Positions 3,855 through 63,223 of a stretch of DNA of 64,000 bases are shown here, in pieces. The stretch's first letter is position 1. Each line of letters opens with the position of its first letter. Made by a program: the position numbers and the translations under genes. The stretch is from contig OMRP01000016.1 of NCBI GenBank assembly GCA_900313615.1, positions 7,505 to 71,504 on the forward strand, given 5' to 3'. The notes beneath the pieces were generated by a model that searched no databases, had not been told where the DNA came from, and saw nothing but the letters and a program-made list of their open reading frames with translations. Origin of the DNA: an uncultured Prevotellaceae bacterium. GTDB lineage: Bacteria; Bacteroidota; Bacteroidia; Bacteroidales; Bacteroidaceae.

Positions 3855-3931
3855 ACACAAAAAGACCTATGCATTGGGCGATTCACATTAGTGAAAAGCC
3901 GAAAGCATAGGTCTATTGAGCATTGTACGTA

Positions 3932-4276: not shown

Positions 4277-4277
4277 A

Positions 4278-48713: not shown

Positions 48714-48775
48714 TACAACCATCAGTCAATTCAACAAACGATTTGGGTTCAGGTGGTATTCGAATCACAAGACGA

Positions 48776-49253: not shown

Positions 49254-49448
49254 ATGAAAAGATACAAAGTTAAAGAGATTATCAAACTTCTTGAAAGCGA
49301 TGGATGGTATCTCTCTGCGACAAAAGGAGACCACAGACAGTTCAAGCACCCGAAGAAGCCAGGGAAAGTGACGGTGAGGGGAAAAGACAGTGAGGTCTTG
49401 AATCAGTTCTTACTGAACAGCATCTGGAAACAAGCGGGGTGGAAATGA
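49254..49448 (+). CDS. hicA: HicA toxin (cassette 1)
   Basis: LESDGWY...KGDHRQFKHP.KPGKVTV. Confidence 0.9.
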   Translation: MKRYKVKEIIKLLESDGWYLSATKGDHRQFKHPKKPGKVTVRGKDSEVLNQFLLNSIWKQAGWK

Positions 49449-49501: not shown

Positions 49502-49915
49502 ATGGAAAAAATCAGAGTAGACGTACAATGGTGCGACAAGAATTTCGGAGCCTCTCTTGGCGAGAATGTGCCCGGTGCCGTAGTGGTAACCGCAAAGACA
49601 TACGAACAATTGCTCAACGATGTGCCTGAATCTCTTCGTTTCCATGTGGAGGGCATGCTTGCCGATGGCGACGACGTGCCCCAGTGGTTGCGCAACGGGG
49701 ACTATGAGCTGGAATACAACCTTGTTGACACAGCCACCATGCTCCATGCCTTTGAGCCTCTTTTGTCGCTTGCCGCCATTAGCAGGGTCACCGGTATCAA
49801 CCAGCATCAGCTATCCCACTACGCCAACGGATTGAAGCAGCCCCGCCCGCAGCAACGGCAGCGCATCGTGGACGGCATCCACAAGATTGGTCGTGAACTA
49901 TTGGCTGTTGTATAA
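49502..49915 (+). CDS. hicB: HicB-like antitoxin with C-terminal HTH (cassette 1)
   Basis: Follows hicA; HVEGMLADGDDVP, TGINQHQLSHYANG. Confidence 0.82.
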   Translation: MEKIRVDVQWCDKNFGASLGENVPGAVVVTAKTYEQLLNDVPESLRFHVEGMLADGDDVPQWLRNGDYELEYNLVDTATMLHAFEPLLSLAAISRVTGINQHQLSHYANGLKQPRPQQRQRIVDGIHKIGRELLAVV

Positions 49916-50161
49916 GTTTTATTGTTTGACGACATTGCTTAGCGTCAGCTTGGCGGGGCATCACTGTCCCGGTCTTTTTCTTACTATCGTTTTCCTTTAT
50001 TGTCCAGCCACCGCAGGAACCAAATGAAGAGACCGACGACAACAATGGTGACAGCCACGTCGACGGCGCGTTTTCACTGCTCCTAAAACGAAGGCTACTT
50101 GACCGCTTCTTTTGTTCAATTTGTCGTTTAAAACGGTTTGGGTTCAGGTGGTAATCGAACC

Positions 50162-50407
50162 TCAATCGCCGCCGTCAGAACTTTCATAGGGGTTATAGTA
50201 AAAACCACCACCCTCAATTACTCCATTATGGCAATATTTCCATACCCACCACTGGATGGGAAATGTAATGATAGGAAGTAAAGCAAAGCTCAGGAGTGTA
50301 AACAGGAAACCACGGAACCAGGTCCTCGGCCACCAACCTCCACAGTAAAAGAGGAAAAGCGCAACCGACACACCTACTATCCATAATATAGTCCAAAGAG
50401 TTTCCAT
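50162..50407 (-). CDS. Small two-TM protein, METLW family copy A (cassette 2)
   Basis: 81 aa; stop codon abuts the repeat. Confidence 0.8.
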   Translation of the reverse strand: METLWTILWIVGVSVALFLFYCGGWWPRTWFRGFLFTLLSFALLPIITFPIQWWVWKYCHNGVIEGGGFYYNPYESSDGGD

Positions 50408-50441
50408 GATTATTAGTTTAATAGAATCTGTCCTAATAGCA

Positions 50442-50678
50442 TCATGGGGCATCACAATAAGCCGAACTTTCACCGAGTCCTTCATCTAACCATCCACCAT
50501 TGCAAAACTTCCATATAACGTATTGGATGGGAAAGGTAACTATAGGAAGGAAAGCGAAACTCAATAGCGTAAAAAGAAATCCACGGAACCACGTCCTCGG
50601 CCACCAACCTCCGCAGTAGAAAAGAATCAGTGCAATAGTTACACCTACAATCCATAATATAGTCCAAAGAGTTTCCAT
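50442..50678 (-). CDS. Small two-TM protein, METLW family copy B (cassette 2)
   Basis: 78 aa; upstream TTTG-N20-TATTTTTG promoter. Confidence 0.8.
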   Translation of the reverse strand: METLWTILWIVGVTIALILFYCGGWWPRTWFRGFLFTLLSFAFLPIVTFPIQYVIWKFCNGGWLDEGLGESSAYCDAP

Positions 50679-50809
50679 AATCTCTATTTTAGGGATTTCT
50701 GCAACAAAAATAACATTATTATTATTATTTTCCAAATTAATTCACCTTTATTTTGGTCTTACGGTTTAAAACATTTTGGGTTCAGGTGGTATTCGAACCT
50801 CAATCTTCC

Positions 50810-51196
50810 ATGTCTCTCGAACTCTGCCAGCAGCACATACAGCGCGGCATACGCGACATCTTCAATGCACAGCTACAGATAGCCGAGCGGCGCATCTACG
50901 GATTCACGCGCCGGCCCGAACTCATCTCGCGCCGAACGAGGCACCTCCGGCGCGAACTCGCAGCTGCACGTCACTCCGTCAGTCATAGCGGGCAGGGGCT
51001 CACCGCCACCGCACAGGTGCCGCTCTACATCCGCTTCCTCGACATGAAGAAACACGGCAACCTCCAAATCTACAACCGGCAGATCTACGGCATACTCTAC
51101 CACCGGGTGCTCAACCGAATACGCTACGGCTACACCGACGAGATAGCACAACAAATAAGAAAAAGATTAATCGAAGCAGGAGCGGTACTAAGGTGA
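50810..51196 (+). CDS. Bacteroidetes prophage tail-region hypothetical protein (cassette 3)
   Basis: IRFLDMK...IYNR.IYGILY...IRYG motif; GC-rich. Confidence 0.6.
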   Translation: MSLELCQQHIQRGIRDIFNAQLQIAERRIYGFTRRPELISRRTRHLRRELAAARHSVSHSGQGLTATAQVPLYIRFLDMKKHGNLQIYNRQIYGILYHRVLNRIRYGYTDEIAQQIRKRLIEAGAVLR

Positions 51197-51200
51197 AAAG

Positions 51201-51437
51201 TCAGTCGTCACTACTGTAATCTGATCCTGGAAAAAGTTCGCCGTCTCCCCATCCGCCGCGATAAATCATCCAAATAACATATTGGATGGGCAATGTGATG
51301 ATGGGAGTGAATATGAGTGTCAACATAACAAAACAAAAACCACGCCACCATGTGCTGGGCCACCATCCTTTGCAATAGAAAAGGAAGAGAGCGACTGCTG
51401 TCACCAAACCGACTAATATAACCCAGAGAGTTTCCAT
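51201..51437 (-). CDS. METLW family copy C (cassette 3)
   Basis: 78 aa, FYCKGWWP.TW motif. Confidence 0.8.
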   Translation of the reverse strand: METLWVILVGLVTAVALFLFYCKGWWPSTWWRGFCFVMLTLIFTPIITLPIQYVIWMIYRGGWGDGELFPGSDYSSDD

Positions 51438-51448
51438 GGAAATAATTG

Positions 51449-51694
51449 CTAATTATAGGCGGCAGTACTTTCATAAGGGTCATAATGCCCACCGCTACCC
51501 TCTATTATACCGTTATGGCAATATTTCCAAACCCACCACTGGATGGGCAATGTGATGATGGGAGTGAATATGAGTGTCAACATAACAAAACAAAAACCAC
51601 GCCACCATGTTCTTGGCCACCATCCTTTGCAATAGAAAAGGAAGAGAGCGACTGCTGTCACCAAACCGACTAATATAACCCAGAGCGTTTCCAT
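51449..51694 (-). CDS. METLW family copy D (cassette 3)
   Basis: 81 aa; 5' ~155 bp nearly identical to copy C. Confidence 0.8.
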   Translation of the reverse strand: METLWVILVGLVTAVALFLFYCKGWWPRTWWRGFCFVMLTLIFTPIITLPIQWWVWKYCHNGIIEGSGGHYDPYESTAAYN

Positions 51695-51828
51695 AACGAC
51701 TTTTGTTTCTTGATGCAAAAATAAACGACGCATAATGCTTTTACAAGGGTTTTTCCCTATTGTTAAGGGGGAAAACCCCAAATTTATGTTAAGTTTAAAA
51801 CGGTTTGGGTTCAGGTGGTATTCGAACC

Positions 51829-52075
51829 AGAGGTTGGAAAGGGATTCGCTGAGCCCGGCAATATATTTTTTCTGCTCCCCGATATGTCTCTTCATGTCGT
51901 CGATGTTCTTCTGCATACTCCTGCCGGCTTCCGCATCACCTTTTTTCTTCGAGTTTAGGAGACGTTTCTGGGAGTCTTCGAGAGTTTTCAGCTCACTCTC
52001 GAGTTTTTTTAGTTCGTTCTGTGCGTTTTTGCTGTTTACGTCGATGACGGCTCTGAATACTTCTTCGTGTCCCAT
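51829..52075 (-). pseudogene. 5' fragment of a probable tape-measure protein, cut by a repeat (cassette 4)
   Basis: IDVNSKNAQNELKKLE coiled coil runs into repeat 4. Confidence 0.55.
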
Positions 52076-52141
52076 AATAATAGGTGGTATGTTTGCTTCT
52101 CTTGCAAATATACCACCTATATCTTTGGAGCGAAAATACCA

Positions 52142-52423
52142 CTAAGCCGGATTCCTCGACTCCTCGTATGTTTGTTGCACGATATCCTCCAGTTCTCTCT
52201 TCGACTTAGCCCTTAATGTGGTAATTTTATTTATAGAAGACAGCCAAAGGACGGCACAATATTCATTATTCTTGAAATCAACATACGCACTAACTACCTT
52301 ATTCTCGCTACCGAGATCATACATGTTCCTTAGCCTGATTTTGGCCTCAGGTCTATCCTTTTTTTGTCTTCCCATCAGCCAGACAATTATCCAGGATGTT
52401 ATTAAAAGTGCGAGAAATTCCAT
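52142..52423 (-). CDS. Small membrane-anchored protein (cassette 4)
   Basis: 93 aa with an N-terminal TM segment. Confidence 0.65.
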   Translation of the reverse strand: MEFLALLITSWIIVWLMGRQKKDRPEAKIRLRNMYDLGSENKVVSAYVDFKNNEYCAVLWLSSINKITTLRAKSKRELEDIVQQTYEESRNPA

Positions 52424-52491
52424 ATATAGTATGTTTAGTGTTCGTTGTAAAAACCCCCTATACTCCCGCACCGGGGGCTGAAGAGTTCTAT

Positions 52492-52935
52492 CTAAAATGA
52501 TTTATTAAGACGCTGCACGGTAGGTTGCTCTAAAGGCAGACCGTGAGCCAAATCACTTGCAAACTTATTGATACCTTCGCGTATCTTCTTGACCTGGGCC
52601 TCGTGAGGTACTCGCAATGACGCGATATATTGTCGAAGCACAGAAGCGTTCATGCCGATGTATTTTGCGAATGCTGTCACATCGATTGGGTAATAGTCAA
52701 AAAACGAACCTATGTCAAGCCTGAAGTCAAATTGTACTTCAGGGAATCTACGTCCCTCTTCTTCCTCCATTTCTTTGTATTCTTTTACAGTGACAATGAT
52801 GTCATCCATCGCTTCGCGGGCGGTCTTGCCATAGCCGGCCAGGCCACACTTACCGACAGGATCGGGAGAAAAGCATGAGAAATTACCTTTTCCTTTTCCG
52901 CGTTCAACGTAAACAATTCTCTTAACGGTTCCCAT
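52492..52935 (-). CDS. hicB: Orphan HicB-like antitoxin (cassette 4)
   Basis: GYGKTAREAMDD, FAKYIGMNASVLRQY HTH. Confidence 0.78.
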   Translation of the reverse strand: MGTVKRIVYVERGKGKGNFSCFSPDPVGKCGLAGYGKTAREAMDDIIVTVKEYKEMEEEEGRRFPEVQFDFRLDIGSFFDYYPIDVTAFAKYIGMNASVLRQYIASLRVPHEAQVKKIREGINKFASDLAHGLPLEQPTVQRLNKSF

Positions 52936-53019
52936 ATATAATGAGTTATAAATATTATCAAAGTAAAGAGTCCTATTATTAATTAGCAAAGTAATTCGGC
53001 ATGGAAAAAGTTGTGGGGG

Positions 53020-53061
53020 TTATTCCCCCAACAACTTTTTTAAGATTTCTCGGAGAGTACC
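53020..53061 (-). pseudogene. Last 13 codons of a hicA-like gene, cut by repeat 5
   Basis: Translates to GTLREILKKLLGE*, upstream of hicB. Confidence 0.6.
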
Positions 53062-53157
53062 GTTTAAAACGGTTTGGGTTCAGGTGGTATTCGAACCGGA
53101 ATTGCTCCAATTCTTTGGACACCTTCAGTTTACTTTGTCTCTCCATCGCCACACCAT

Positions 53158-53343
53158 TTAAAAGCCCATAGCATCCATCATCGCATCGTATTCCATAGGA
53201 TTACTTGGCATGTCACCATACATGCCGTCAGTCAGCGCATCCCAGGAATCCTCTTCTGTCCATTCGTAGCCACCTTCATTGTAGCTTTCGCACTCGTAAT
53301 CATCGTACTCTTCATAAGAGTCATCATAATAATCTCTTGCCAT
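53158..53343 (-). CDS. Very acidic 61-aa protein (cassette 5)
   Basis: D/E/Y-rich with a single basic residue; only gene in a 301-bp cassette. Confidence 0.75.
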   Translation of the reverse strand: MARDYYDDSYEEYDDYECESYNEGGYEWTEEDSWDALTDGMYGDMPSNPMEYDAMMDAMGF

Positions 53344-53562
53344 AATCTTTTGTTTTTAATCGTTATTACTCTTATTTCTTTACCAAAACACTCTGGGCGT
53401 TTAAAACGGTTTGGGTTCAGGTGGTATTCGAACCCAAAAGTACTTTTTTTCTGAATTATTGATTAAAATGGTTATGTTAATATAGTATTTTAACCTCAAT
53501 GCCTGTCGGTGTCTTAGTTGTGGTTTTATTGAATACGCGATGTTGCATATCTTATATCTTTG

Positions 53563-54168
53563 CTATGTGATATAAAGCATTCGGTATTTCAATCGCGCAC
53601 TATGACACTTTGGGCAGTACAGCGGGTCATCATTTCCTTTTAGTATGTCTTCCTCCTTATTTCTGATTATTGAGCCACATTTTGGACAGACGAAATCTTT
53701 ATCAGACTCTCCAAACGTATGATATTGTTTACTCTCGTTGTGTTCTATAACGAATGCATGGCAGTTAGGGCATTGCCTGCCAATATCACATGACACCGCA
53801 CCATGAACGAAACTTATAATATCCTCATGGTAACCACAGTCGCAACATTCAATCTTTCCCGCGCCACCCATTTGGGAAAAACAGAGATAATGTTCATCCG
53901 GTTTCAAACCCAATTTCTTTTTCAACATAATTTCCTCTTTATCTTTTTTCTTTTCTTCTCTTGTTTTCTTGTATTTGCTAACTGCTACATTAATTAAAAT
54001 TACAGGTAGGAACACGGTTGCGAAGGGTGCCGTAATCAGAAGAGTCAACCACTGCTTAAACGTTGTTTTCTCTGAATCCTTGTTCTTCTTGTTATTATAG
54101 ACCCGAATGCTGATGGTTAAAACAAGACTTATAAACCAATAGATGAGTACATAATGAATCCAATTCAT
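53563..54168 (-). CDS. Two-TM protein with four CxxC zinc-ribbon motifs (cassette 6)
   Basis: CCDC, CPNC, CPKC, CPKC; own TATATTTG promoter. Confidence 0.75.
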   Translation of the reverse strand: MNWIHYVLIYWFISLVLTISIRVYNNKKNKDSEKTTFKQWLTLLITAPFATVFLPVILINVAVSKYKKTREEKKKDKEEIMLKKKLGLKPDEHYLCFSQMGGAGKIECCDCGYHEDIISFVHGAVSCDIGRQCPNCHAFVIEHNESKQYHTFGESDKDFVCPKCGSIIRNKEEDILKGNDDPLYCPKCHSARLKYRMLYIT

Positions 54169-54292
54169 AGTTTTCCCTTCTGTATTGTTTAAGATTAAAA
54201 TGGTTCTGTTACTTATAGAAACTTTGCAAATATAAACATAATAATCGACACAAACAAAATAAATGGGCAAAAGCCTAAAATATGGCACGGAT

Positions 54293-54583
54293 TTATAAAA
54301 ACACTTCCATACCATTGAGGTTATCATAGACCAGCCCGGAGCCGTAGCAGACCTCCGCATTGAAGAGCTGGCACGTCGAAAGTGTCTCGTCGCTTTCTAT
54401 GAGGTCGAGGACACGGAAAGGCAGATTGTTGTCGCCTCCCCACGGCATATAGGCGAGGTTTTTGTCAACGATGAAGGGAGCGGTGTCCTCCGATTCACGG
54501 AAGACTTCGGAGGAGTTGACCGTAAAAGCAGCACTTGCTTTGAGGTCGGGGATGAGTTCTACGCTGTTAAAAGAAAAATCCAT
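54293..54583 (-). pseudogene. N-terminal fragment of a phage portal protein (cassette 6)
   Basis: PWGGDNNLP...DETLSTCQLFNAEVCYGSGL; ends after ~90 aa. Confidence 0.65.
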
Positions 54584-54649
54584 AACTTTGTTTTTGATGC
54601 AAAGTTATGGATTGGTATGTGATGGGGAAAAGACAATAACTATAGACTA

Positions 54650-55099
54650 TTAGTCATTGTCGATGTTCTTTAACATGAAAAGGCACCTTCCTTTTCTATA
54701 GTCTTTAGGTGACAATCTCTTTTTACAATCAAACGCATTTTTATAATCGACAACGTCCCATTCCCATGCTTCCTGCATGATATATTTTTTATCGTATAAA
54801 ATCCATATAAGTTTATCCCACTCATAGTTGGTTGCTTTAGGAGCCATTGTCACGAAGCTACCAGGCTTTCCACTGGGACGATTGGCTTTTACTTGGTATC
54901 TTATGCCATTGAAGACAAAATCAGCCCCCTTGCTAACAGCGGTTTTGTCTTGCATATATTCAGAATATTGGTCTTCAGACATTCCTATGAGCATTGCAGC
55001 ATCATACTCTGAAAGAGAACTGGTAATCGATGGTGATACTCCAAATTTACTTTGCCATGCTAAAGCAATTTCAACAAGATTATCTCTAAGCATATACAT
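54650..55099 (-). CDS. PD-(D/E)XK-like nuclease-fold protein (cassette 6)
   Basis: SEYDAA...GADF...YQVK. Confidence 0.55.
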   Translation of the reverse strand: MYMLRDNLVEIALAWQSKFGVSPSITSSLSEYDAAMLIGMSEDQYSEYMQDKTAVSKGADFVFNGIRYQVKANRPSGKPGSFVTMAPKATNYEWDKLIWILYDKKYIMQEAWEWDVVDYKNAFDCKKRLSPKDYRKGRCLFMLKNIDND

Positions 55100-55225
55100 T
55101 ATTTTTAAGTTTAAAACGGTTTGGGTTCAGGTGGTATTCGAACCGACGAGTATTTTTATCTTAAAAGTTACGGGATTTGGCATGTCGTGTCCTTTTTTTT
55201 TATTATATTTGCAAAAAAAACAAGA

Positions 55226-55501
55226 ATGAAGTTAAAGAAACGAGGTAAGAAACTCTTCGCCTACCTTTTAGTGGCACTGCTCTCTTTTCCGGTGGCATTG
55301 ATTTCATGGTGCTCATCTTGGTATGATGTATGTACCGTAAGTCTCATTATTTTCGTTTTTTCTGTAGTCAAAAGTATCTGTATATATTTGGCCAACTTTT
55401 ACGACAAATACGGGCTTTTGAGCAGGCAAGGGCCAGACACACTGTTCGAATACGAGCCGGGCGACAAAGAGTATGAAGAAGAGAAGAAATGGCAGCGATA
55501 G
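55226..55501 (+). CDS. Small two-TM protein (cassette 7)
   Basis: 91 aa, own promoter; TAG stop is completed by the first G of repeat 8. Confidence 0.75.
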   Translation: MKLKKRGKKLFAYLLVALLSFPVALISWCSSWYDVCTVSLIIFVFSVVKSICIYLANFYDKYGLLSRQGPDTLFEYEPGDKEYEEEKKWQR

Positions 55502-55579
55502 TTTAAAACGGTTTGGGTTCAGGTGGTATTCGAACCCTGAATTTTTTTGGAGATTAAAAAAATTTGTTTATCGTTTGCA

Positions 55580-55653
55580 ACGAGGATTCCGTAGCTAATG
55601 ACTACCGATTCTTCGCCAGAATGAGGAATGAGCAATCATTCCTCAAACTTTTT
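55580..55653 (+). ncRNA. Candidate sRNA, two hairpins (cassette 8)
   Basis: Stem with 7-nt CUAAUGA loop; perfect 10-bp tgaggaatga-gcaa-tcattcctca hairpin plus U-tract. Confidence 0.5.
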
Positions 55654-55725
55654 ATAGAACACAAATGATATGGTGGAGTTGAATTTCGTTCATTTTGTTG
55701 TATTTTTGCAGTAAAAAAATCAGTT

Positions 55726-56160
55726 ATGACTATTATATCCAACTCCGAAGACAGCAAAACAACATTTCTCGAGCTAATAAATCAGAGAAGAGCTTTGAAC
55801 AACGAACTGTCAGTTGTGCTTCGCCATTACACAGGCATATCGTCCACTCTACTTGCTCTATTGGCTGTGTTTGGTGATATAGCTTCGTTTTCCCTTCCAG
55901 TAAGGATTCTGATTTCAGCGAGTATGACGTGTTTACTTTCATCTGTTCTGTCGGGAGTGTGGTGCTGTATGGCAGTTTATCTAACACGCGAAAGAGCCAT
56001 GGGAAGAGTTCTCGAACAGCTGAGGACGAAAGCCGGAAATGCTCAAGGGTCAGTATCTCCCCCTTTCGGATTCTCCTTTTTTGTGCGATTCTGCCCCACC
56101 ATGTTGTGCTTGGGCGTTCTATTCTTATGGCTGAGCGCCATGTTTTTGTTGTTTTTTTAA
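55726..56160 (+). CDS. Three-TM membrane protein (cassette 8)
   Basis: 144 aa, hydrophobic segments, TATTTTTG -7 element. Confidence 0.7.
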   Translation: MTIISNSEDSKTTFLELINQRRALNNELSVVLRHYTGISSTLLALLAVFGDIASFSLPVRILISASMTCLLSSVLSGVWCCMAVYLTRERAMGRVLEQLRTKAGNAQGSVSPPFGFSFFVRFCPTMLCLGVLFLWLSAMFLLFF

Positions 56161-56223
56161 TGCTTTCTTCCATTTTTTTTGTGTTTTTTATTTGGAAGTT
56201 AAAATATTTTGTTTATCTTTGCA

Positions 56224-56290
56224 GTTGGAATAGCATCAGGGTTGAGCCTTGGATTGTAACTCCAGGTAGTTCTTCCTTTTTGCTATTTCT
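56224..56290 (+). ncRNA. Candidate sRNA with a tRNA-anticodon-like hairpin, convergent on the MuF gene end (cassette 8)
   Basis: TTTG-N19-TATCTTTG promoter; CTTGGA-TTGTAAC-TCCAGG; closing gaatagca/tgctattt stem. Confidence 0.5.
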
Positions 56291-56954
56291 TTTTTATGTA
56301 TTTCTTTATTTCTTCTGGATTGTCAGAAATGGAATGGAGGACGTATTCTCCCCAGTCCCACTCCCAAACAATTATACATTGTTCATCCCCTTTTACCTTA
56401 GTGGAGAAAATATGACTTTGCTTTAATTTTGGCTTTTGGTTATGAGGCGGAAGTGTCGATGGTCCCAGGTATTCACACTCTTTTTCTTCAAACACTTCAT
56501 TTATACGTAGTAGCATCTTGTTTTTTTCTTGATAGTGTTTGTTGGGTTGGTTGGTCCATTCTGTTATTGATGCTCTTGATATATTTATAGGATGGGGAAA
56601 TTTCGATGTGTTGATAGAAGTCCCCTGTAGTGGTTTGGCTTGTTTCCTTGTCTGCTTGGCATCAGCATTTGCTAATGATCTGACAATCCGGCATGCTGCA
56701 CACAGTTCATTCTCGGGCACGAAAGCGAGGTTGACTTTTCCCTGTGCGATGTCGCAGTCTCGGCAACGTCGTATGGTGTATGGGTTGTAGTCCGGAATAG
56801 TCTTCTGCTCTATGCCTGGATTGAAGTGGAAGATGCCCTTGTTGTCCTTTCCGGTTGCCGCCTCTCCGAGTGCCATTGCCTCGTCGTGCGGGGTCACGGG
56901 ATACTTTGACTTGCGGACCTGGACAACAGTGCATCGGCAGTTCCAGCCGTTTGG
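56283..56954 (-). pseudogene. 3' fragment of phage head morphogenesis protein (MuF) with C-terminal extension, cut by repeat 9
   Basis: Begins PNGWNCRCTVVQVRK directly at the repeat. Confidence 0.8.
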
Positions 56955-56990
56955 GTTTAAAACGGTTTGGGTTCAGGTGGTATTCGAACC

Positions 56991-57151
56991 GTGAGTATGG
57001 CCCTTCCCTGGTTCCTGACAGGCGACTTTCGTCGCTGCCAAGCCTGGGAGAAGAAGGCCTGACGTTCGAAGTTCCGGTCGAACTCGTCGGTGAGTTCTAC
57101 CTGAATGTCGCGGAGGATGTTTTTTATTATTTTCTGAATATTTTCGGGCAT
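56991..57151 (-). pseudogene. 5' fragment of phage virion morphogenesis protein (Mu gpG-like), cut by repeat 9 (cassette 9)
   Basis: DIQVELTDEFDRNFERQAFFSQAWQRRKS. Confidence 0.72.
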
Positions 57152-57188
57152 TTTGTTTGGAGGTTAGGGATTTCTTTGTATCTTTGCA

Positions 57189-57275
57189 GTGTCCTTAGTG
57201 ACTACCCGCTGAGTATGCGTGGGGATTGGGCTTTATCGTACCGTCCCATTTGGCTGTCTTCGGATAGCCTTTTTT
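57189..57275 (+). ncRNA. Candidate sRNA with promoter and terminator (cassette 9)
   Basis: TTTG(57156)-N19-TATCTTTG(57179); ggctgtc-ttcg-gatagcc-T6 terminator; no ORF inside. Confidence 0.55.
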
Positions 57276-57425
57276 ATTGTTCGATACGTTTTCTGAACTC
57301 CTTGTAGAACGTTCTCTTCATAACAAAGTTCCTTTCCACAGACACCATCTTTTTCCCAACTGCTACCAGCACTTCCAGTGCCTCGTTGTTAGCCTCGAAG
57401 TATTGTTTGATTTCTGTGGCCATTC
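57274..57425 (-). pseudogene. 3' end of an upstream phage gene (probably a MuF extension), cut by repeat 10
   Basis: 49-aa tail MATEIKQYF...FRKRIEQ*; upstream of the virion morphogenesis gene. Confidence 0.45.
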
Positions 57426-57483
57426 GTTTAAAACGGTTTGGGTTCAGGTGGTATTCGAACCATTAAAAATGAAATAAGTCATT

Positions 57484-57729
57484 TTAATCGCTACTACTAT
57501 AAAACGCAGCACTCTTTTGTGTGTTGCCATCTCCATCTCCCCATCCACCATGGTAAATCATCCATATAACATACTGAATAGGGAAAGTGATAATCGGAGT
57601 AAACAGACAAGTCAATATGATAAACAAAAAACCACGAAACCATGTACTGGGCCACCATCCTTTACAATAAAAAAGGAAGAGAGCCACCGTCAGCACAACC
57701 CCAACCAATATTGTCCAAAGCGTTTCCAT
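57484..57729 (-). CDS. METLW family copy E (cassette 10)
   Basis: 81 aa; upstream promoter region homologous to cassette 2. Confidence 0.8.
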   Translation of the reverse strand: METLWTILVGVVLTVALFLFYCKGWWPSTWFRGFLFIILTCLFTPIITFPIQYVIWMIYHGGWGDGDGNTQKSAAFYSSSD

Positions 57730-57860
57730 GATTTCTGATTGAAATAACTTCACCACAAAAATAATATTAATAATAATATTTTCCAAATTAATTCACCTTT
57801 ATTGTTTAAAACGGTTTGGGTTCAGGTGGTATTCGAACCTATCGGCATTGCGAACAATTC

Positions 57861-57940
57861 AGGTTGCCTGATTCATAGTTTGGGAACACGCTTTTTATAG
57901 TTGTTTCGGTGGCAGTAGGTTAACCGATTCATAGTTTAGG
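57861..57940 (+). repeat. Iteron-like direct repeats upstream of rep
   Basis: aggttgcctgattcatagtttggg / aggttaaccgattcatagtttagg (20/24 identical, 56-bp period). Confidence 0.5.
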
Positions 57941-57970
57941 CAATTATTATATGTATATACATACGTGCGT

Positions 57971-59239
57971 ATGGAGAAGAAACAAGGAATATCGAAAGAG
58001 GAAATGCGCCAGTTGGTGGAGTCGCATTCGTGGATCAAGTCGCCGTTCGCCTACACCAAACTGGGTGCCAACCTCTCGCTGGTGCAGCAGCAGTCGCTCC
58101 TCATGGTCAGCGACCATCTGCAGACGTATATCAAGGACTTCTACAACCTAAAACTGGATAAGTCGAAGAAGCGCCCCAAGTCGCTGTTCACGGAGCACCT
58201 TTTGAAGAACGGAATACCTCCGTTCCGCATCTATCTGGCCGACCTCGGTGTGCAGGCGGGCAACTACCGCGACGTGCGCAAGGCCATCAACGAAATGGCG
58301 GTGATGGTGGAGCACCCAGTGCTCGACGATGACGGCATCCCCACGGGTGAGACGGCCTTTAACCCGGTCTTCGAGGAGTTCAGGGTGAAAGAGACTGGCG
58401 ACTACTACCACTACGAGCGCGAGAATGAGGAGGGGCTGATGGAAATGGCGGAGTCGGTGCGGCACTATGGCTACATCGACGTGCAGATCAACCCGAAGGT
58501 GGCCGAGTGGGCTTTTGATATGTCGGCGGGATATGTGAACCATTTGAAACTGATAGCGCGTTATAGTACAAAGCGCCCCACGCCGCGCCTCTATCTCATG
58601 CTGATGCGGGCGATAGGGCAGGGGAAGAAACGGGTGCGCTACACGCTTCAGGAATTAAAGGAATACCTCGGTATCGTGCCCTACGTCAACGAGAAGGGCG
58701 AGACAGTGACACCTTACCCCAAGTTCGCCCACTTCCGCATCAAGGTGCTCGACGCGGTGCGCGACGACCTCGACCGCATGGCGAAACTCAACCAGACGGA
58801 CATCCGATTTGAGTATGATCTGATTTATCCCGGCAGCCGTAAGCGTGGCGAACCTGAATATATTGAGTTCAAGATTGAGCGCACTCAGTTGGGCGATGCG
58901 TATAATGTTATCGTCAATCACCAGCCGTCTGAGATAAAGCAGCAACCCCGTCAACAAGAACTTTTTATGGAAGAGTATAAAGAGAAGTTTAAACAGTGCT
59001 TGGCAGAAATGGCTGAAAAGGTTGAAGATGACAGTGTAAAAGCGAAATTGAAAATGATGCAGTTTGAGCATTTCGACACAACCAAGAAGGTGCTTTACAT
59101 TCAACTGCCCGACTCCGACTATTACCAATGGATAGAGAGCGACAACGTAATCCGATTCGTATGGGGACATCTTTCCAAGCATTTCGGGAAAAGCATCCAG
59201 CTCCAATATAGGCTGTTGAAAAATTCACCGAAACCGTGA
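57971..59239 (+). CDS. Rep_3/RepB-like replication initiator (cassette 11)
   Basis: RLYLML, TLQELKEYLGI, YPKFAHFRIKVLD winged-helix pattern. Confidence 0.8.
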   Translation: MEKKQGISKEEMRQLVESHSWIKSPFAYTKLGANLSLVQQQSLLMVSDHLQTYIKDFYNLKLDKSKKRPKSLFTEHLLKNGIPPFRIYLADLGVQAGNYRDVRKAINEMAVMVEHPVLDDDGIPTGETAFNPVFEEFRVKETGDYYHYERENEEGLMEMAESVRHYGYIDVQINPKVAEWAFDMSAGYVNHLKLIARYSTKRPTPRLYLMLMRAIGQGKKRVRYTLQELKEYLGIVPYVNEKGETVTPYPKFAHFRIKVLDAVRDDLDRMAKLNQTDIRFEYDLIYPGSRKRGEPEYIEFKIERTQLGDAYNVIVNHQPSEIKQQPRQQELFMEEYKEKFKQCLAEMAEKVEDDSVKAKLKMMQFEHFDTTKKVLYIQLPDSDYYQWIESDNVIRFVWGHLSKHFGKSIQLQYRLLKNSPKP

Positions 59240-59312
59240 CAACCTGTACCAAATGTTAAAATCGAAAAGGGTATATTTGCATCGTAAACGAATATATCCT
59301 TTTTGATTTTTT

Positions 59313-59594
59313 ATGAGCGAGGAAAACGAAAAGAAATCTCCGACCCTTGATGATTTCATCATCACCGAGAAGGTGGATGCCTTCTGCAAGCAGTATCGCC
59401 CGGTCAAGGAACACACCTTCGCTACCGAGGCTTTCAACGAAGAGCGGCTGCGTGAGTTCTTCAAGGCTTACGAACTGTTCTCGCAGGGCGACCCTTTGAA
59501 GGTGTATATCGACGAGCTGGCCGCACGCGACTATCACATGTCCGTATCGGTATATGGCGAGCCAGCTATTATAGTGGAGGAAAAATTCGACTGA
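59313..59594 (+). CDS. Phage hypothetical protein (cassette 11)
   Basis: 93-aa ORF with TATATTTG promoter. Confidence 0.65.
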   Translation: MSEENEKKSPTLDDFIITEKVDAFCKQYRPVKEHTFATEAFNEERLREFFKAYELFSQGDPLKVYIDELAARDYHMSVSVYGEPAIIVEEKFD

Positions 59595-59628
59595 CATCTA
59601 TCAAACCAATCAAAATAATTGTATCAGC

Positions 59629-60456
59629 ATGGCAAAATATTATTATGAGTTTCCTTTCGACAGCAAGGAGGGCAGGGCACTGGCAAAGTTCCACCACGCC
59701 TGCGTCAACGCCGAGCGCATGGCGGAGAAGTATGCGAAAGGTATGGGGGCGGTGTCTTATTATACAAGCCCGCATTACTTCACCGGCGGCGTGGAATACT
59801 TGGTCTTCGCAGATCCCAAGAAGGTGAACACCGACATCTGGAGGCTGGCCAACAAGACTAAAGACGGCGAACAATGGTGGGAACCTAATGTGGAGAAAGT
59901 GGCGGGGTGCGTGAAGGCGCGTGAGAATTTCACGCCATCAGACGTGGCCGGGCGCACTTATTCCAAACGTCCCAGCACATGGGACGAGGTGCGCAGGACG
60001 TACACTCTGGACGAATGGCTGGCTTTCATAGGATTCAAGACATCCGGCGACAAGGAGATAGACAGCAAGGCCATAGTGGGCTTGTTGGGCGACAAGCAAT
60101 TCTACAAGTACATCGACATCATCCCGAATGCCGCTCCCGTGGCGGGCAGGAAACGAAGTCGTGACGGGTCTAAAGCCGTGACCGCCGAGCAGGAGCGGAT
60201 GAAACTGCCGGTCGTCAGGACAGAAGACTTTTACCAGATAGTTCATGCCCACAACGTAGCCGCCGAAAACGAAAAAGAAGGAAAGCCCCTGAAGGTGGAT
60301 GAGAGCACGCCTGTGTTTTTCGCCCATGCTGGGAAGTGGAACATCGGGCTTGACCGTCTAATAGACTGCGGGGATTATGACGGCTTCGCGGAAATCACCG
60401 CAGGGATGTTCACGGCAAGGAAAAACTTCATGCTGCGAGAATTGAATAGGAAATAG
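59629..60456 (+). CDS. Phage hypothetical protein (cassette 11)
   Basis: 275-aa ORF. Confidence 0.65.
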   Translation: MAKYYYEFPFDSKEGRALAKFHHACVNAERMAEKYAKGMGAVSYYTSPHYFTGGVEYLVFADPKKVNTDIWRLANKTKDGEQWWEPNVEKVAGCVKARENFTPSDVAGRTYSKRPSTWDEVRRTYTLDEWLAFIGFKTSGDKEIDSKAIVGLLGDKQFYKYIDIIPNAAPVAGRKRSRDGSKAVTAEQERMKLPVVRTEDFYQIVHAHNVAAENEKEGKPLKVDESTPVFFAHAGKWNIGLDRLIDCGDYDGFAEITAGMFTARKNFMLRELNRK

Positions 60457-60475
60457 AAAACGGCAATTCTCCCAA

Positions 60476-61126
60476 TTACCGTTTGTTGGGGTTTACGTGT
60501 GGGCGCGGAGCGTCTCCGTAATCTGCCACACCTTCGGGGCTGTAACCGCTATAGGAAGACTGGCGCCCGCCTTGCGTGAGTGCCAGTCTTATTGTTTGCA
60601 TCCCGTCGCTCACCATGTCCTTGTATTCGTCTATCCGAGCTTCATATTGGCTGATGCGCTCTTCGTATTGCCGGCGCATATCATCTTCACGCTCCTGATA
60701 TTCTCTTCTAAGCTGTGCCTCTTTCTTCAGCTGCTCGTCTTTTATCCGTTGAATCTCCTGCATGTGGTCAATTTTCATTTGCAGGATTTCCATCTGCGAT
60801 GTATTATCTTTCTCGTTCTTTTCATTTTTCGTCGCTTCGCTTTGCAGCCGTTCATCCCCTCGCACTGAGGCGCGATGTGCCGTTTTTGGAATGACTGTCG
60901 CCGGACTGTCGCCGTCAAGAAAGAACTCCGAAAGGTCTATGTCATAAAGATTGCAGAGCAGCACCATTTTTTCTACTGGCAGAGGATTGGTCTTGTCCTT
61001 CATCCATCGTTTCAGGCTCACATTATTCACCTCCAGGTCTTTCATAAGTTGGGTGAGTTTTAGCCCCGACTTCTCGAACCACTGTCCAAAGAAATCGGCG
61101 TTGTACGAATACTTTTTCATAATCAT
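60476..61126 (-). CDS. XRE/CI-like HTH repressor with coiled-coil C-terminus (cassette 11)
   Basis: LTQLMKDLEVNNVSLKRWM...LLCNLYDIDLSEFF; divergent overlapping promoters upstream. Confidence 0.72.
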   Translation of the reverse strand: MIMKKYSYNADFFGQWFEKSGLKLTQLMKDLEVNNVSLKRWMKDKTNPLPVEKMVLLCNLYDIDLSEFFLDGDSPATVIPKTAHRASVRGDERLQSEATKNEKNEKDNTSQMEILQMKIDHMQEIQRIKDEQLKKEAQLRREYQEREDDMRRQYEERISQYEARIDEYKDMVSDGMQTIRLALTQGGRQSSYSGYSPEGVADYGDAPRPHVNPNKR

Positions 61127-61251
61127 TCTGGTTTATGTTTGACAAATGCTTTTCTTAAAAAATGTTTATCTAATCAAAATAAATAATCATTATAGATTGA
61201 TATTTATTTTAGTTTCGTACTTTTGCAACAAAGTTACAAAATATCAATGAA

Positions 61252-61322
61252 ATGACAAAAGAAGTATTTTTGAAATTGCACGCCCCTGGCGGTCATCTTG
61301 AAGCAAAAGACCTGACCGCCGA
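61252..61322 (+). pseudogene. Start of the divergent early gene, cut by repeat 12
   Basis: MTKEVFLKLHAPGGHLEAKDLTA runs into the repeat. Confidence 0.5.
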
Positions 61323-61358
61323 GTTTAAAACGGTTTGGGTTCAGGTGGTATTCGAACC

Positions 61359-61476
61359 CTTTAATTGGTAATTTTTTGAGGCAAAGATAGTTGTAATTTT
61401 TATAATTACAAAAAAATGAAAGAAATAATGAGCAATTTATATTATTCCTTCATTTTTTTAGTAATTTAGCCGAAAA
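61359..61476 (-). promoter_or_regulatory. Array leader with a promoter facing into the array
   Basis: AT-rich; minus-strand TTTG(61412-61409)-N19-TATCTTTG(61389-61382); palindrome TTGTAATT-N5-AATTACAA. Confidence 0.78.
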
Positions 61477-62334
61477 ATGGCAAAGCAAACTTTAGTATTC
61501 GAATCATCAAAAGAACTATCCTTAAGAGATGGTATGTTGGTCATTACCAACAGGGAGACTGAAGAGACGACATTGCGCTCGTTGGAGGACATCCAGATGA
61601 TCATGGTGGATAATCATTCCGTCAAGATAACGATTCCTCTCATCGCTAAATTATCGAAATTAAATATCGGTGTTGTGTTCTGCGACGAGAAACATATGCC
61701 TGTGTCGATGTTGTTGGATTTGGAATCTAATACCTTGCAGTCGAAAAGGATAAGATGTCAGTTGGCTGCATCAAAACCAGTCAATAAACAAATATGGAAA
61801 CAAATTGTAGAGGCTAAAATCCGTAACCAGTCTTTATTGCTTGAGAAATTGGGCATTGGCAAATCATTGCTTGCCACCTACTACAACAATGTCAAAAGTG
61901 GCGATTCCACCAATCGGGAAGGGATGGCTGCAAGAGTGTATTGGTTGAAACTCATTGGAAAGAACTTTATTCGTGATAGGTTTGGAGGACCTCCGAATGC
62001 TCTCCTTAATTACGGCTATACCGTGCTCCGTTCTATGGTGGCCAGAAGTCTCATGAATGCAGGACTGCTTCCTCTCGTGGGAATCTTCCATCATAATTGT
62101 CACAATGCTTTTCCTTTGGCCGATGATGTTATGGAACCATATAGACCTTATGTTGACTATCGGGTAATAATAATGCTGAAAGAAGGACTGACGGAAGTGT
62201 GCAGAGAATCGAAGAGACGGCTATTGGAATTATTTTATCAAGATATTTCTGCTGACGCAATGTCATTGACGGCTTCTTCACTGGCTGGTATTTATGAAGA
62301 AGATGGTAGAGTTATTGTTTATCCAACGATTTGA
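61477..62334 (+). CDS. cas1: CRISPR-associated integrase Cas1 (type II-like)
   Basis: FCDEKHMP, KIRNQ, SGDSTNREG, NALLNYGY, GIFHH, LADDVMEPYRP. Confidence 0.95.
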   Translation: MAKQTLVFESSKELSLRDGMLVITNRETEETTLRSLEDIQMIMVDNHSVKITIPLIAKLSKLNIGVVFCDEKHMPVSMLLDLESNTLQSKRIRCQLAASKPVNKQIWKQIVEAKIRNQSLLLEKLGIGKSLLATYYNNVKSGDSTNREGMAARVYWLKLIGKNFIRDRFGGPPNALLNYGYTVLRSMVARSLMNAGLLPLVGIFHHNCHNAFPLADDVMEPYRPYVDYRVIIMLKEGLTEVCRESKRRLLELFYQDISADAMSLTASSLAGIYEEDGRVIVYPTI

Positions 62335-62338
62335 AAAT

Positions 62339-62653
62339 ATGTGGATCTATGTTGTTACAAGTTTCACCCGCTATAACAAGGTGGGACGAAAAGCAAAGGA
62401 TGTTTTTCAAAAGTCAATAGTTAAAGATGGATTCTTCCAACTACATGAGAATCTGTATGTCAGGTATTGCAGCACGGTAGGTAATGCTAATATGCATAAA
62501 GAACGAGTAAAGAACGTCATACCGATAAAGTGTTGCGATGTGAGCATTATTATGACCGCTGATAGTCAGGAAAGCAATATCTATCACAGCCTTAATAGGA
62601 AAAGGTCAAAATGTATTGTTTATGGAAAACATGGCAATGTGGAATTCTTCTAG
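62339..62653 (+). CDS. cas2: Divergent Cas2 (type II-like)
   Basis: Follows cas1; KDGF.QL...YVRYC...A..H.ERVK..IP; usual FD(L)P motif replaced by TSFT. Confidence 0.82.
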   Translation: MWIYVVTSFTRYNKVGRKAKDVFQKSIVKDGFFQLHENLYVRYCSTVGNANMHKERVKNVIPIKCCDVSIIMTADSQESNIYHSLNRKRSKCIVYGKHGNVEFF

Positions 62654-62666
62654 AATTGTTTTACTA

Positions 62667-62712
62667 AACAAAGAGCCATTTCCCTCTTTAAGACAGGAAA
62701 CGGCTCTTTGTT
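62667..62712. terminator. Bidirectional terminator between cas2 and rpiB
   Basis: aacaaagagcc...ggctctttgtt. Confidence 0.7.
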
Positions 62713-62732
62713 ATATTGCTACAAACTGAGCG

Positions 62733-63173
62733 TTACACCGGAATCTTGTCGATGCGACGCTGGTGGCGACCACCTTCGAAGTCGGTGGCGAAATATTCGT
62801 CCATAATCTTGCGAGCCATGTCTTCATCGATGAAACGACCAGGCATGACGAGCACATTGGCATCGTTGTGCTGACGGATGAGATGGGCAATCTCGGGAAT
62901 CCAGCACAGGCCGGCGCGAATGGATTGGTGTTTGTTGAGGGTCATGTTGATGCCTTCGCCGCTACCACAGACAGCGATGCCGGGATAGACCTCGCCAGCT
63001 TCGATGCCGCGTGCCAAGGCATGGCCGAAGTCGCTGTAGTCGCACGAGTCCTCCGTGTAGGTGCCATAGTCCTTGTAAGCGTAACCTTTTTCTTCCAGGT
63101 ATTGCTTGACGAATTGTTTCAAAGCATAGCCAGCATGGTCGCTGGCTATGCCTATGGTTTTGAATTCCATCAT
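62733..63173 (-). CDS. rpiB: Ribose-5-phosphate isomerase B
   Basis: ASDHAG, CGSGEG, HNDANVL, FEGGRHQRRI. Confidence 0.95.
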   Translation of the reverse strand: MMEFKTIGIASDHAGYALKQFVKQYLEEKGYAYKDYGTYTEDSCDYSDFGHALARGIEAGEVYPGIAVCGSGEGINMTLNKHQSIRAGLCWIPEIAHLIRQHNDANVLVMPGRFIDEDMARKIMDEYFATDFEGGRHQRRIDKIPV

Positions 63174-63223
63174 AATTGCTAATCCTAAATTTTGAATTGT
63201 TAATTATGAATTGTGAATTGTAA

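Follow-up and report, generated by a model that had tools for sequence, protein, structure and literature searches.

The stretch of rumen Prevotella DNA analyzed here (the window, 64 kb in full; coordinates without a locus name are positions within it, and loci used for comparison carry L-numbers such as L024, L186 and L187) contains between 48.7 and 62.7 kb a CRISPR adaptation module, which is derived from type II-C and has lost Cas9 and the trans-activating CRISPR RNA (tracrRNA). Besides cas1, cas2 and a leader, it comprises an array in which 12 copies of one 36-nt repeat, where 0 would be expected by chance, follow each other on the + strand between 48731 and 61358. The nine copies nearest to cas1 are identical and the mismatches are confined to the three copies farthest away (Table 1). 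Thus, identical direct repeats of ~36 nt, an AT-rich leader and decay of the far end are all present, but the uniform spacers of ~26-40 nt that characterize a CRISPR array are not, as the repeats delimit 11 inserts of 301 to 3483 bp (C0 to C10, referred to here as cassettes). The repeat itself forms only a short hairpin. Within its own genome it is confined to the array, and it was found neither in 400 sampled genomes of the family nor, using exact and degenerate patterns, in the JGI metagenome contigs.

Measuring 0.3-3.5 kb, the cassettes derive from the DNA of temperate phages and mobile elements, and most are built around AT-rich accessory units that have their own promoter. Among these units are genes for small membrane proteins and for a conserved acidic protein of 61 aa, hicAB or hicB alone, a repressor/early region and a small gene of nuclease-like type. 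The evidence presented below supports the view that the cassettes are pieces of phages and mobile elements with clipped neighbouring genes, in which complete small accessory genes are over-represented.

Table 1. Repeats (R), cassettes (C) and selected cassette ends of the array, with the leader and the adjoining cas genes (aa, amino acids; HTH, helix-turn-helix; ORF, open reading frame).
Feature	Position	Strand	Description
R0, degenerate trailer repeat	48731..48766	+	7 mismatches; immediately after the ZIP transporter gene
C0	48767..50125	.	1359 bp; complete hicA (49254-49445) and HicB-like gene (49502-49912)
R1 repeat	50126..50161	+	1 mismatch
C1	50162..50763	-	602 bp; two tandem genes for two-helix membrane proteins of 78-81 aa, with promoter
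C1 left end			directly 3' of a stop codon
R2 repeat	50764..50799	+	2 mismatches
C2	50800..51792	.	993 bp; phage tail-region gene from codon 2 (+, 50801-51193); two membrane-protein genes of the C1 family (-)
C2 left end			codon 2 of the tail-region gene
R3 repeat	51793..51828	+	
C3	51829..53061	-	1233 bp; 3'-cut coiled-coil ORF (51830-52075), 93-aa membrane protein gene, HicB-like gene (52495-52935), hicA remnant
R4 repeat	53062..53097	+	
C4	53098..53398	-	301 bp; gene for a 61-aa acidic protein, complete (53161-53343); at the left edge ~16 codons of the following gene
R5 repeat	53399..53434	+	
C5	53435..55108	-	1674 bp; three complete genes: 201 aa (membrane, zinc ribbons), 96 aa, 149 aa
C5 right end			9 nt ahead of an ATG
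R6 repeat	55109..55144	+	
C6	55145..55500	+	356 bp; promoter and one 91-aa membrane protein gene
C6 right end			within a stop codon, completed by the first G of the repeat
R7 repeat	55501..55536	+	
C7	55537..56954	.	1418 bp; complete 144-aa membrane protein gene (+, 55726-56157)
C7 MuF/LPD3 piece	56286-56954	-	C-terminal 223 codons, cut at the 5' end
R8 repeat	56955..56990	+	
C8	56991..57425	-	435 bp; first 53 codons of a PF05069 gene (56993-57151); 49-aa ORF at the right edge
C8 right end			2 nt from the ATG of the 49-aa ORF
R9 repeat	57426..57461	+	
C9	57462..57803	-	342 bp; promoter and a single gene for an 81-aa membrane protein (C1/C2 family)
R10 repeat	57804..57839	+	
C10, adjoining the leader	57840..61322	.	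3483 bp; two iteron-like repeats; genes of 422, 93 and 275 aa (+)
R11, leader-proximal repeat	61323..61358	+	
Leader, AT-rich	61359..61476	-	118 bp; conserved in L024
Leader promoter-like site TTTG...TATCTTTG	61382-61389	-	points into the array
cas1	61477..62334	+	285 aa; PF01867, E 1.6e-27
Divergent cas2	62342..62653	+	103 aa; blastp ~1e-15 versus Cas2 of Cas9-bearing loci

The preliminary description of this DNA had stated that nearly every cassette holds an intact small gene or sRNA unit, usually with its own TAnnTTTG promoter, and that the smallest cassettes are essentially one gene each. As regards the genes, both statements were confirmed: intact small genes with TAnnTTTG boxes were recovered in 10 to 11 of the 11 cassettes, and those of 301, 342 and 356 bp each contain a single gene, encoding 61, 81 and 91 aa, respectively. 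The enrichment over random fragments of the same lengths, which the same description had proposed to examine, was determined using a null model in which genes were called by a greedy ORF caller (generous to small ORFs) on 83 viral loci, 638 kb in total. A complete gene was present in at least 10 of the 11 cassettes where 4.2 were expected (P 6.7e-6). According to this model a random fragment of 301, 342, 356, 435 or 602 bp holds a complete gene in 3.2, 4.9, 5.5, 9.2 and 19% of the cases, respectively, and the joint probability for the three smallest cassettes amounts to 8.7e-5. When the fragments were weighted for the end motif described below, or matched for GC content, the chance of a complete gene at these three lengths became 3.5, 5.2 and 5.9% and 5.7, 10 and 6.8%, respectively, with joint probabilities of 1.1e-4 and 3.9e-4. 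Motif weighting also left the share of intergenic cuts unchanged (10.4% versus 10.2%). An end motif or AT content as the cause of the whole-gene enrichment was rejected on the basis of these two nulls. In a stricter, annotation-free test, in which partial and complete ORFs compete within each fragment, a dominant complete ORF was found in 8 of 46 short cassettes from 12 arrays versus 2.4 expected (P 0.0018), and when the window was left out, in 6 of 41 versus 2.1 expected, which is about threefold (P 0.014). The whole-gene enrichment is thus real, and moderate outside the window.

The genes next to these intact units are often clipped, and the truncations that had been proposed at five repeat borders could be traced with varying success. 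At 56954, the open frame of the MuF gene in C7 begins at position 165 of the 459 of phrog_23416, so that ~165 N-terminal residues are missing, and the nucleotide homology ends exactly at this position in every one of ~40 alignments with viral contigs. Full-length relatives of this protein measure 387-425 aa and have the PF04233 domain (Phage_Mu_F) at residues 86-176; the piece in C7 carries an LPD3 domain. A related phage MuF (L143:918-2192) has a weak CdiA_C-like C-terminal domain (E 0.0035) at the place where the window copy has LPD3, in keeping with the C-terminal modules of MuF proteins being variable. At 56991, a virion morphogenesis gene of ~201 codons retains its 53 N-terminal codons; a relative of 201 aa belongs to PF05069 (E 3e-15), and the piece is matched in 29 viral loci with up to 87% identity. 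The hicA remnant at 53061 likewise proved genuine: it comprises 13 C-terminal codons with the HicA end motif as found in the HicA of L188, and the complete HicB-like gene in C3 is a homologue of the partner of that HicA. Here the toxin gene was cut and the antitoxin-like gene kept. At 51829 a truncation stands, as a coiled-coil ORF with a promoter box runs stop-free into the repeat (in L025 the same gene is cut 23 codons earlier), and nothing was found that supports its designation as 'tape-measure-like'. Finally, C10 contains a gene for a 216-aa HTH regulator (- strand; phrog_2967, E 1e-7) and, divergent from it, a 23-codon ORF that follows a promoter-like site and is cut by the repeat at 61322. 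No homologue of this ORF was found, and truncation of an early gene is plausible only.

The positions of the ends do not bear out the idea that the phage genes are cut at random. An open frame of 50 codons or more adjoins only 59% of the 22 ends, whereas for cuts made at random in viral DNA the figure is 92% (P 0.003); 8 to 12 of the 22 lie outside genes where 10% is expected (P 1e-3 to 3e-7), and 5 of the 22 lie at most 10 nt from a start or stop codon (P 4e-4; Table 1). By inspection, four ends are located deep inside genes and a few more leave stubs of 13-23 codons. The ends had also been said to share no motif, which is contradicted by the base composition counted inward from the repeat. 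Position 4 is an A at 15 of the 22 ends in the window (P 1e-4) and at 83 of the 148 ends pooled from 14 arrays (56% versus 28% expected, P 1e-12); position 3 is an A at 47% of the pooled ends (P 1e-6), and the combination AA at positions 3-4 occurs at 27% versus 7% expected (P 1e-13). This signature is present separately at left and right ends and in both Prevotella-type and Fibrobacter arrays. The A at position 4 is replicated in two arrays recovered from metagenome contigs, L196 and L197 (14 of 28 ends, P 0.012), and the 766 unique spacers of 30 nt in 41 Cas9-bearing sister arrays do not have it. Since the inward positions 1-2 are variable, the A at position 4 is not part of the copied repeat.

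Viewed by strand, both 3' ends of the inserts tend to read TTNN-3' (NNAA inward), and the symmetry of the signature suggests that a protein chooses or trims the two ends. Acquisition without sequence specificity, as initially supposed, is hence not what the ends reflect: they carry a weak symmetric NNAA signature and avoid gene interiors. Xiao and co-workers reportedly found in 2017 that the type II-A Cas1-Cas2 complex holds prespacers with 4-nt 3' overhangs; if that geometry applies here, position 4 would correspond to the junction between duplex and overhang. As a separate observation, the last 11 nt of C7 (in the region 56936-56957, within the MuF codons for P-N-G-W) resemble positions 10-20 of the repeat, which may represent junction microhomology or a coincidence.

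To specify the origin of the inserts, the six-frame peptides of ~90 cassettes from 14 arrays were compared with the 16-kb prophage locus L186. All matches fell within 1.3 kb (L186:7389-8672), an accessory block beside the tape-measure gene plus the adjoining 133-aa gene, and no cassette matched the other 14 kb of structural genes. Four independent cassettes (C1, C2, C9 and one from L187/L188) match this block, the joint probability of which is 1.7e-4 if capture were random in the locus. Similarly, the block adjacent to MuF has been captured in the window (C7 and C8), in L024 and in L088, with the MuF gene of L024 cut 138 nt from the cut point in the window and on the opposite strand. In L187 the homologue of C6 (82% identity) is inverted and lies within a larger cassette of 885 bp, which in addition retains another small gene and, in clipped form, a neighbour gene. 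The homologue of C9 in L187 (95% identity) is inverted as well, one of its ends being located 2 nt from that of C9 and 9 nt from that of C1 and the other 68 nt off. Furthermore, L188 holds a complete hicA and partner of the family that is only partly kept in C3, and parts of C3 are found again in L025, in three different cassettes. These comparisons indicate that sister strains and species have captured the same accessory loci independently, with different cut points and in both orientations. Independent recapture of the same loci is the pattern that a content filter would produce.

The observations above also bear on the simplest view of the array, namely that of an archive in which fragments are captured and retained regardless of content and small genes are whole by chance. 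Some ends are indeed cut in mid-frame, at different codons in different arrays; one cassette of L197 is a pure structural-gene fragment (a TMP_3 piece), and a crude longest-ORF statistic for the window alone, discussed below, is not significant. Nevertheless, such an archive was already disfavoured and seems very unlikely, considering the complete-gene content, the excess of ends outside genes, the clustering of cassettes on the 1.3-kb block of L186 and the end motif.

Comparison of strain variants revealed the polarity of the array. In L187 the flank is 98% identical to that of the window, the decayed first repeat matches and C0 is 99.6% identical, after which the cassettes differ. Within the region equal to C0 this locus keeps an extra decayed repeat, and C0 therefore consists of two old cassettes that have fused. 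In L188 the repeat, the leader and the first 96 nt of cas1 are identical (100%) and the leader-adjacent cassettes differ; both L187 and L188 share flank and C0 with the window at 98-99% identity. The Fibrobacter species represented by L048 and L049 have a trailer cassette in common, with 96% identity from the first base. Shared trailers and differing leader-side cassettes, along with repeats that are decayed at the trailer and intact at the leader side, represent the polarity expected of growth at the leader end. L188 also provides a natural deletion, in which the equivalent of 61573-62667 is gone: L188:3012-3261 (window 61323-61572) is joined to 3259-4591 (window 62668-64000) with a 3-nt overlap at the junction, and most of cas1 and all of cas2 are missing.

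The Cas1 encoded in the window represents by its sequence an integrase with intact catalytic residues, as E148, H205, D216/D217 and E220 are invariant across 28 relatives, which database records name 'type II CRISPR-associated endonuclease Cas1'. It is 45-50% identical to the Cas1 of Cas9-bearing sister loci. The adjacent gene encodes a Cas2 by blastp homology, which lacks the N-terminal 12 residues and the Asp of the FFDLP element of sister type II-C Cas2 proteins and matches the Pfam model PF09827 below threshold (E 0.016; 15.8 bits versus a cut-off of 23.8). A complete type II CRISPR-Cas system is not present: the Cas9 model TIGR01865 gave no match in the 81.6%-complete genome assembly (2.77 Mb, 33 contigs), no Cas9-size ORF was noticed in the ORF lists of the locus, and no tracrRNA anti-repeat was found in the window. 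In two other loci with identical Cas1, L015 and L021, the cas2 ORF downstream of cas1 is uncalled or replaced by a different call of 96 aa, so cas2 may be variable or broken in some strains.

We examined 80 loci around Cas1 relatives in contigs of one genome per species. A Cas9-size ORF lies directly upstream of cas1 in 46 of them, and 44 of these 46 also have an array with a period of 65-66 nt. Kilobase-spaced repeats were seen only beside Cas9-less cas1-cas2 lineages, in 14 loci of Bacteroidales and Fibrobacter. The long arrays of the Bacteroidales (L024, L025, L028, L033, L034, L038, L044 and L088) and of Fibrobacter (L043, L046, L048 and L049) each have their own repeat of 33-36 nt. Two further long arrays, the above-mentioned L196 and L197, were obtained from metagenome contigs. 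The candidate L055 was rejected, its repeat being located inside a large ORF. In the Cas1 tree all 49 proteins of short-spacer, Cas9-type loci, 46 of which have a Cas9-size ORF beside cas1, fall into one clade (100/100). Of the Cas9-less ones, 21 from Bacteroidales group together (96/88) and 10 from Fibrobacter make up a clade (100/99). The Cas1 of the window is found within a clade of 8 rows (100/100) alongside four other long arrays. At L044 a single 30-nt spacer adjoins the cas genes (L044:11034-11133) and is followed by inserts of 190-2076 bp, and thus one locus holds both insert sizes. In L197 (L197:2205-9883), the six copies of the 35-nt repeat that are distant from cas1 have a T as second base and the four close to it a G, a polymorphism that follows the position in the array.

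The possibility that the array was not built by Cas1 should be considered here. By this account a recombinase encoded elsewhere would have assembled it, through integron-like or tandem site-specific integration, and cas1-cas2 would be a bystander relic. It would explain why L188 can retain an array without cas1-cas2, and gene-sized cassettes that include toxin-antitoxin units are also a feature of chromosomal integrons. Yet no recombinase gene is present among the flanking genes on either side, the repeats are identical 36-mers of CRISPR length and not variable attC hairpins, and the cassette ends have no common core beyond one or two A positions. Furthermore, the 14 arrays have unrelated repeats, each lying beside a cas1-cas2 pair and decaying at the far end. 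We regard this account as scarcely credible. Tandem integration at a tRNA end or att site was rejected separately, as the window contains no tRNA gene.

From the association with cas1-cas2, the polarity, the form of the repeat and the symmetric end signature we infer that Cas1-Cas2 itself probably inserts the fragments. We propose, with a probability of roughly 45%, that in this type II-C-derived module Cas1-Cas2 inserts long fragments, the content of which is then filtered, likeliest by host retention of useful genes. More explicitly, long duplex fragments would be inserted at the leader-proximal repeat without control of orientation and without a strict site, at a weak preference for TTNN 3' ends that would appear as NNAA inward from both cassette ends. 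The filter would act after insertion, and would most likely consist in the retention of fragments whose accessory gene is complete, self-expressed and in some way useful to the host. Candidate benefits would be exclusion of related phages, an antitoxin without its toxin and repressor-type immunity. The content is filtered, be it by selection or by capture, and on the sequence data selection for useful genes is plausible.

A number of observations weigh against this proposal. An array with identical cassette order and lengths was found in at least 7 independent metagenome assemblies that encode an identical Cas1, which gives no sign of recent activity in this strain type, and the deletion variant L188 keeps its array without cas1-cas2. 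No second copy of any cassette is present in the own genome; among GenBank phages no near donor match was found, only two weak and distant ones, and the IMG/VR relatives of the MuF piece and of the 422-aa gene of C10 reach 76-85% nucleotide identity at best. With donors no closer than ~76-85%, neither donor flanks nor a protospacer-adjacent motif (PAM) outside the insert can be read. The gene calls of the null model were made by a simple greedy caller, and most of the 83 viral loci are MuF-centred. The short cassettes of the other arrays are mostly fragments without a dominant complete ORF, and the cruder longest-ORF statistic gave P 0.24 for the window alone; this statistic is low-powered because spurious ORFs are common, and was replaced by the gene-call nulls. 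No cassette protein matches a described defence or superinfection-exclusion family in Pfam, PHROGs or PADLOC. In addition, the cassettes (GC 0.34-0.49) are AT-richer than the host (0.487) and the viral loci (0.507), and three independent ends are no more than 11 nt apart.

AT-richness and clustered ends fit a capture hot spot as well as selection, and the same pattern could have arisen by a bias of capture alone. Cas1-Cas2 would then favour AT-rich DNA bounded by promoters and terminators, which may melt easily, be free of protein or be released at particular breaks, so that accessory units would be taken up intact only incidentally and the cassettes would have the status of neutral passengers. 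In L186 the accessory block (GC 0.416) is AT-richer than its neighbours (0.53-0.58), the end signature is A-rich and a number of ends lie close to start or stop codons; the scarcity of whole genes in the short cassettes of other arrays and the lack of defence families among the cassette proteins point in the same direction. However, weighting by the motif has virtually no effect on how often a complete gene is found or on the proportion of intergenic cuts, weighting by GC still leaves the three smallest cassettes improbable, and between homologous loci both the cut points and the orientation vary. A regional hot spot of a kind other than motif or GC is possible, and the three ends within 11 nt speak for one. 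All in all we consider capture bias without selection a somewhat unlikely explanation.

TAnnTTTG boxes, which are of the Bacteroidetes type (-7), are located 20-40 nt upstream of most intact genes and have a density of 2.6/kb in the array versus 1.2/kb in the rest of the window. The 'sRNA units' (small RNA units) that had been proposed in the cassettes exist insofar as promoter-like boxes are followed by ORF-free stretches of 55-85 nt with a hairpin and a T run, for instance in C7, where a promoter-like site precedes an ORF-free hairpin stretch, and in C8, on the + strand; as RNAs they found no backing, as no Rfam family was detected anywhere in the array. The cassette genes face both ways (13 versus 8, P 0.38), and the array thus does not work like an integron with a single promoter. 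A conserved module of ~60 nt, a terminator hairpin running into a TACCTTTG promoter box, recurs with 86-91% identity in cassettes of five arrays (L196:6904-7077, L196 c4, L088 c0 and c6, L187 c5 and L024 c2), where units resembling the hairpin stretches of the window are found as well. The 174-bp cassette c1 of L196 contains little beyond this module and, following it, a hairpin unit of ~55 nt with its own T run.

One may also envisage a memory at the RNA level, in which long - strand transcripts driven by the leader act as antisense or decoys against related phages and the wholeness of genes is incidental. The promoter-like site in the leader points into the array, the inserts derive from phage and mobile-element DNA and their orientation is unconstrained, as would be expected without a PAM. 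Such a memory has no effector or processing partner that is known, Cas9 and the tracrRNA not having been found, and terminator-like hairpins are present in several cassettes, where they would end a long transcript and argue against a single array transcript. The enrichment of complete, self-promoted genes would moreover be left unexplained, and we therefore regard an RNA memory as quite improbable.

With respect to function, the small genes of the cassettes are real coding genes, as judged from the ratio of nonsynonymous to synonymous substitution rates (dN/dS) between gene copies, which is mostly 0.1-0.4 (0.23 for the 91-aa gene of C6 versus its L187 homologue); one of eight pairs, with few changes, has a value of 0.85. 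Homologues exist for these genes, but HicA is the sole clear family, the small cassette proteins lacking any Pfam or PHROGs match. The HicA of C0 (PF07927, E 4.9e-18) is followed by a partner of 137 aa with a C-terminal HTH, so that C0 carries a HicAB pair. PADLOC matched no cassette protein except for one weak mREase_II hit (E 1e-3), and the assignment of the 149-aa product of C5 as a small nuclease resembling PD-(D/E)XK restriction enzymes is a lead only. Given that no defence family was matched, the 'immunity' function put forward in the preliminary description is a guess, and the label 'superinfection exclusion' for cassette proteins would be one by analogy.

One family consists of the 78-81-aa membrane proteins with two hydrophobic stretches, of which C1, C2 and C9 contain five full-length copies. 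The family is rare (16 clusters among 5.8 billion). In the L186 prophage three of its genes, located on the opposite strand, form a block flanked by the tail genes and by a tape-measure gene of 1375 aa (PF10145), and it is also found in a chromosomal context in L189 and L190. The tail-region gene of C2 is 79% identical to the 133-aa gene of L186 over residues 2-130. In nine viral loci the 144-aa membrane protein gene of C7 has MuF genes as its neighbours. The 61-aa acidic protein of C4 is a member of a very large and tightly conserved family with more than 614 clusters, almost all showing a length of 60-61 aa and an identity of 80-93%; a role as DNA mimic of the anti-restriction type, suggested by its composition, is only a guess. 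Natively, its gene is part of an element that also carries genes for CHAT, DUF4407 and a PIF1 helicase, and in L191-L193 (5001-5183) it is found between DUF4407 and a gene of 178-180 aa, near CHAT, SIR2, Schlafen-like and PIF1-helicase genes. A 525-bp cassette in L187 (L187:7421-7945) carries a complete gene for ribosomal protein S20 (PF01649, E 1e-25). The element context of the 61-aa gene and the S20 cassette imply that the donors are not all phages.

Outside the array, the locus is flanked by genes for a hydrolase and the ZIP transporter on one side and, beyond cas1 and cas2, by rpiB and a transketolase gene on the other. In the composition profile the region at 37-44 kb, upstream of the array, has a GC content of 0.33-0.40.

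To our knowledge, Cas1-Cas2 writes only records of ~30 bp, and a full-text search of the literature yielded no paper on arrays with kilobase inserts beside a Cas9-less Cas1-Cas2. What this locus contributes is a non-random content enriched in whole small accessory genes, the repeated independent capture of the same loci, a symmetric signature at the insert ends that is not seen in ordinary spacers of the sister systems, and natural strain variants that include one without cas1-cas2. If capture by Cas1-Cas2 is true, it would provide a second natural route, beside integrons, to banks of foreign genes, and it would be a candidate for a tool that writes DNA of kilobase length into a defined site. 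A farther-reaching claim would be that a lineage of Cas9-less Cas1-Cas2 modules is a device for gene capture and not a spacer recorder, which takes up gene-sized duplexes with TTNN-3' ends into a leader-polarised array, and that the host retains those in which accessory genes of phages or mobile elements are whole and self-expressed. The outcome would be a bank, on the chromosome, of functions 'stolen' for exclusion or as antitoxins and repressors, in effect an integron built from CRISPR parts. We regard this claim as unlikely.

Basically four known systems invite comparison. Like the type II-C modules of Bacteroidales, the locus has a Cas1 (at the identity given above) with a homologous Cas2, a 36-nt repeat and an AT-rich leader, its trailer repeats decay and strains differ on the leader side. 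Unlike in these modules, the inserts measure 301-3483 bp and not ~30 bp, have NNAA at both ends where ordinary spacers do not, and carry genes that look expressed; Cas9 and the tracrRNA were not found, and Cas2 is without the N-terminal segment and the conserved Asp. Casposons, the transposons with a solo Cas1 or 'casposase' reportedly described by Krupovic, Hickman, Beguin and co-workers, share the Cas1-family integrase, the insertion of kilobase-sized DNA and the duplication of the target site. The inserts of the window differ in being mutually unrelated and gathered in one leader-polarised array with a Cas2 present. Casposons also have a family B polymerase and terminal inverted repeats; no polymerase was found among the 27 ORFs of the window that were scanned against Pfam, and as to terminal inverted repeats, the cassette ends share only the NNAA positions, no dedicated inverted-repeat search having been run.

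Chromosomal integrons resemble the locus in having a row of gene-sized cassettes split by a recurring site, many small genes of unknown function and toxin-antitoxin cassettes, and by analogy both might serve as a bank of accessory or defence genes; integron cassettes are reported as anti-phage libraries in a preprint (bioRxiv 10.1101/2024.07.02.601686). In contrast to integron cassettes, those of the window are self-promoted, face both ways and clip neighbouring genes at their edges. No IntI tyrosine recombinase is encoded among the flanking genes, the whole genome not having been searched for IntI, and in place of attC sites there are identical 36-mers with a short hairpin, the promoter-like boxes being located inside the cassettes. 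Finally, the morons and exclusion genes of phages differ from the units described here in that the latter lie outside any prophage, between CRISPR-type repeats, and match no described exclusion or defence family. Like morons, the units kept whole are small, AT-rich and self-promoted and occur between structural genes in a prophage, and L186 indeed has three such genes between its tail genes and the tape-measure gene.

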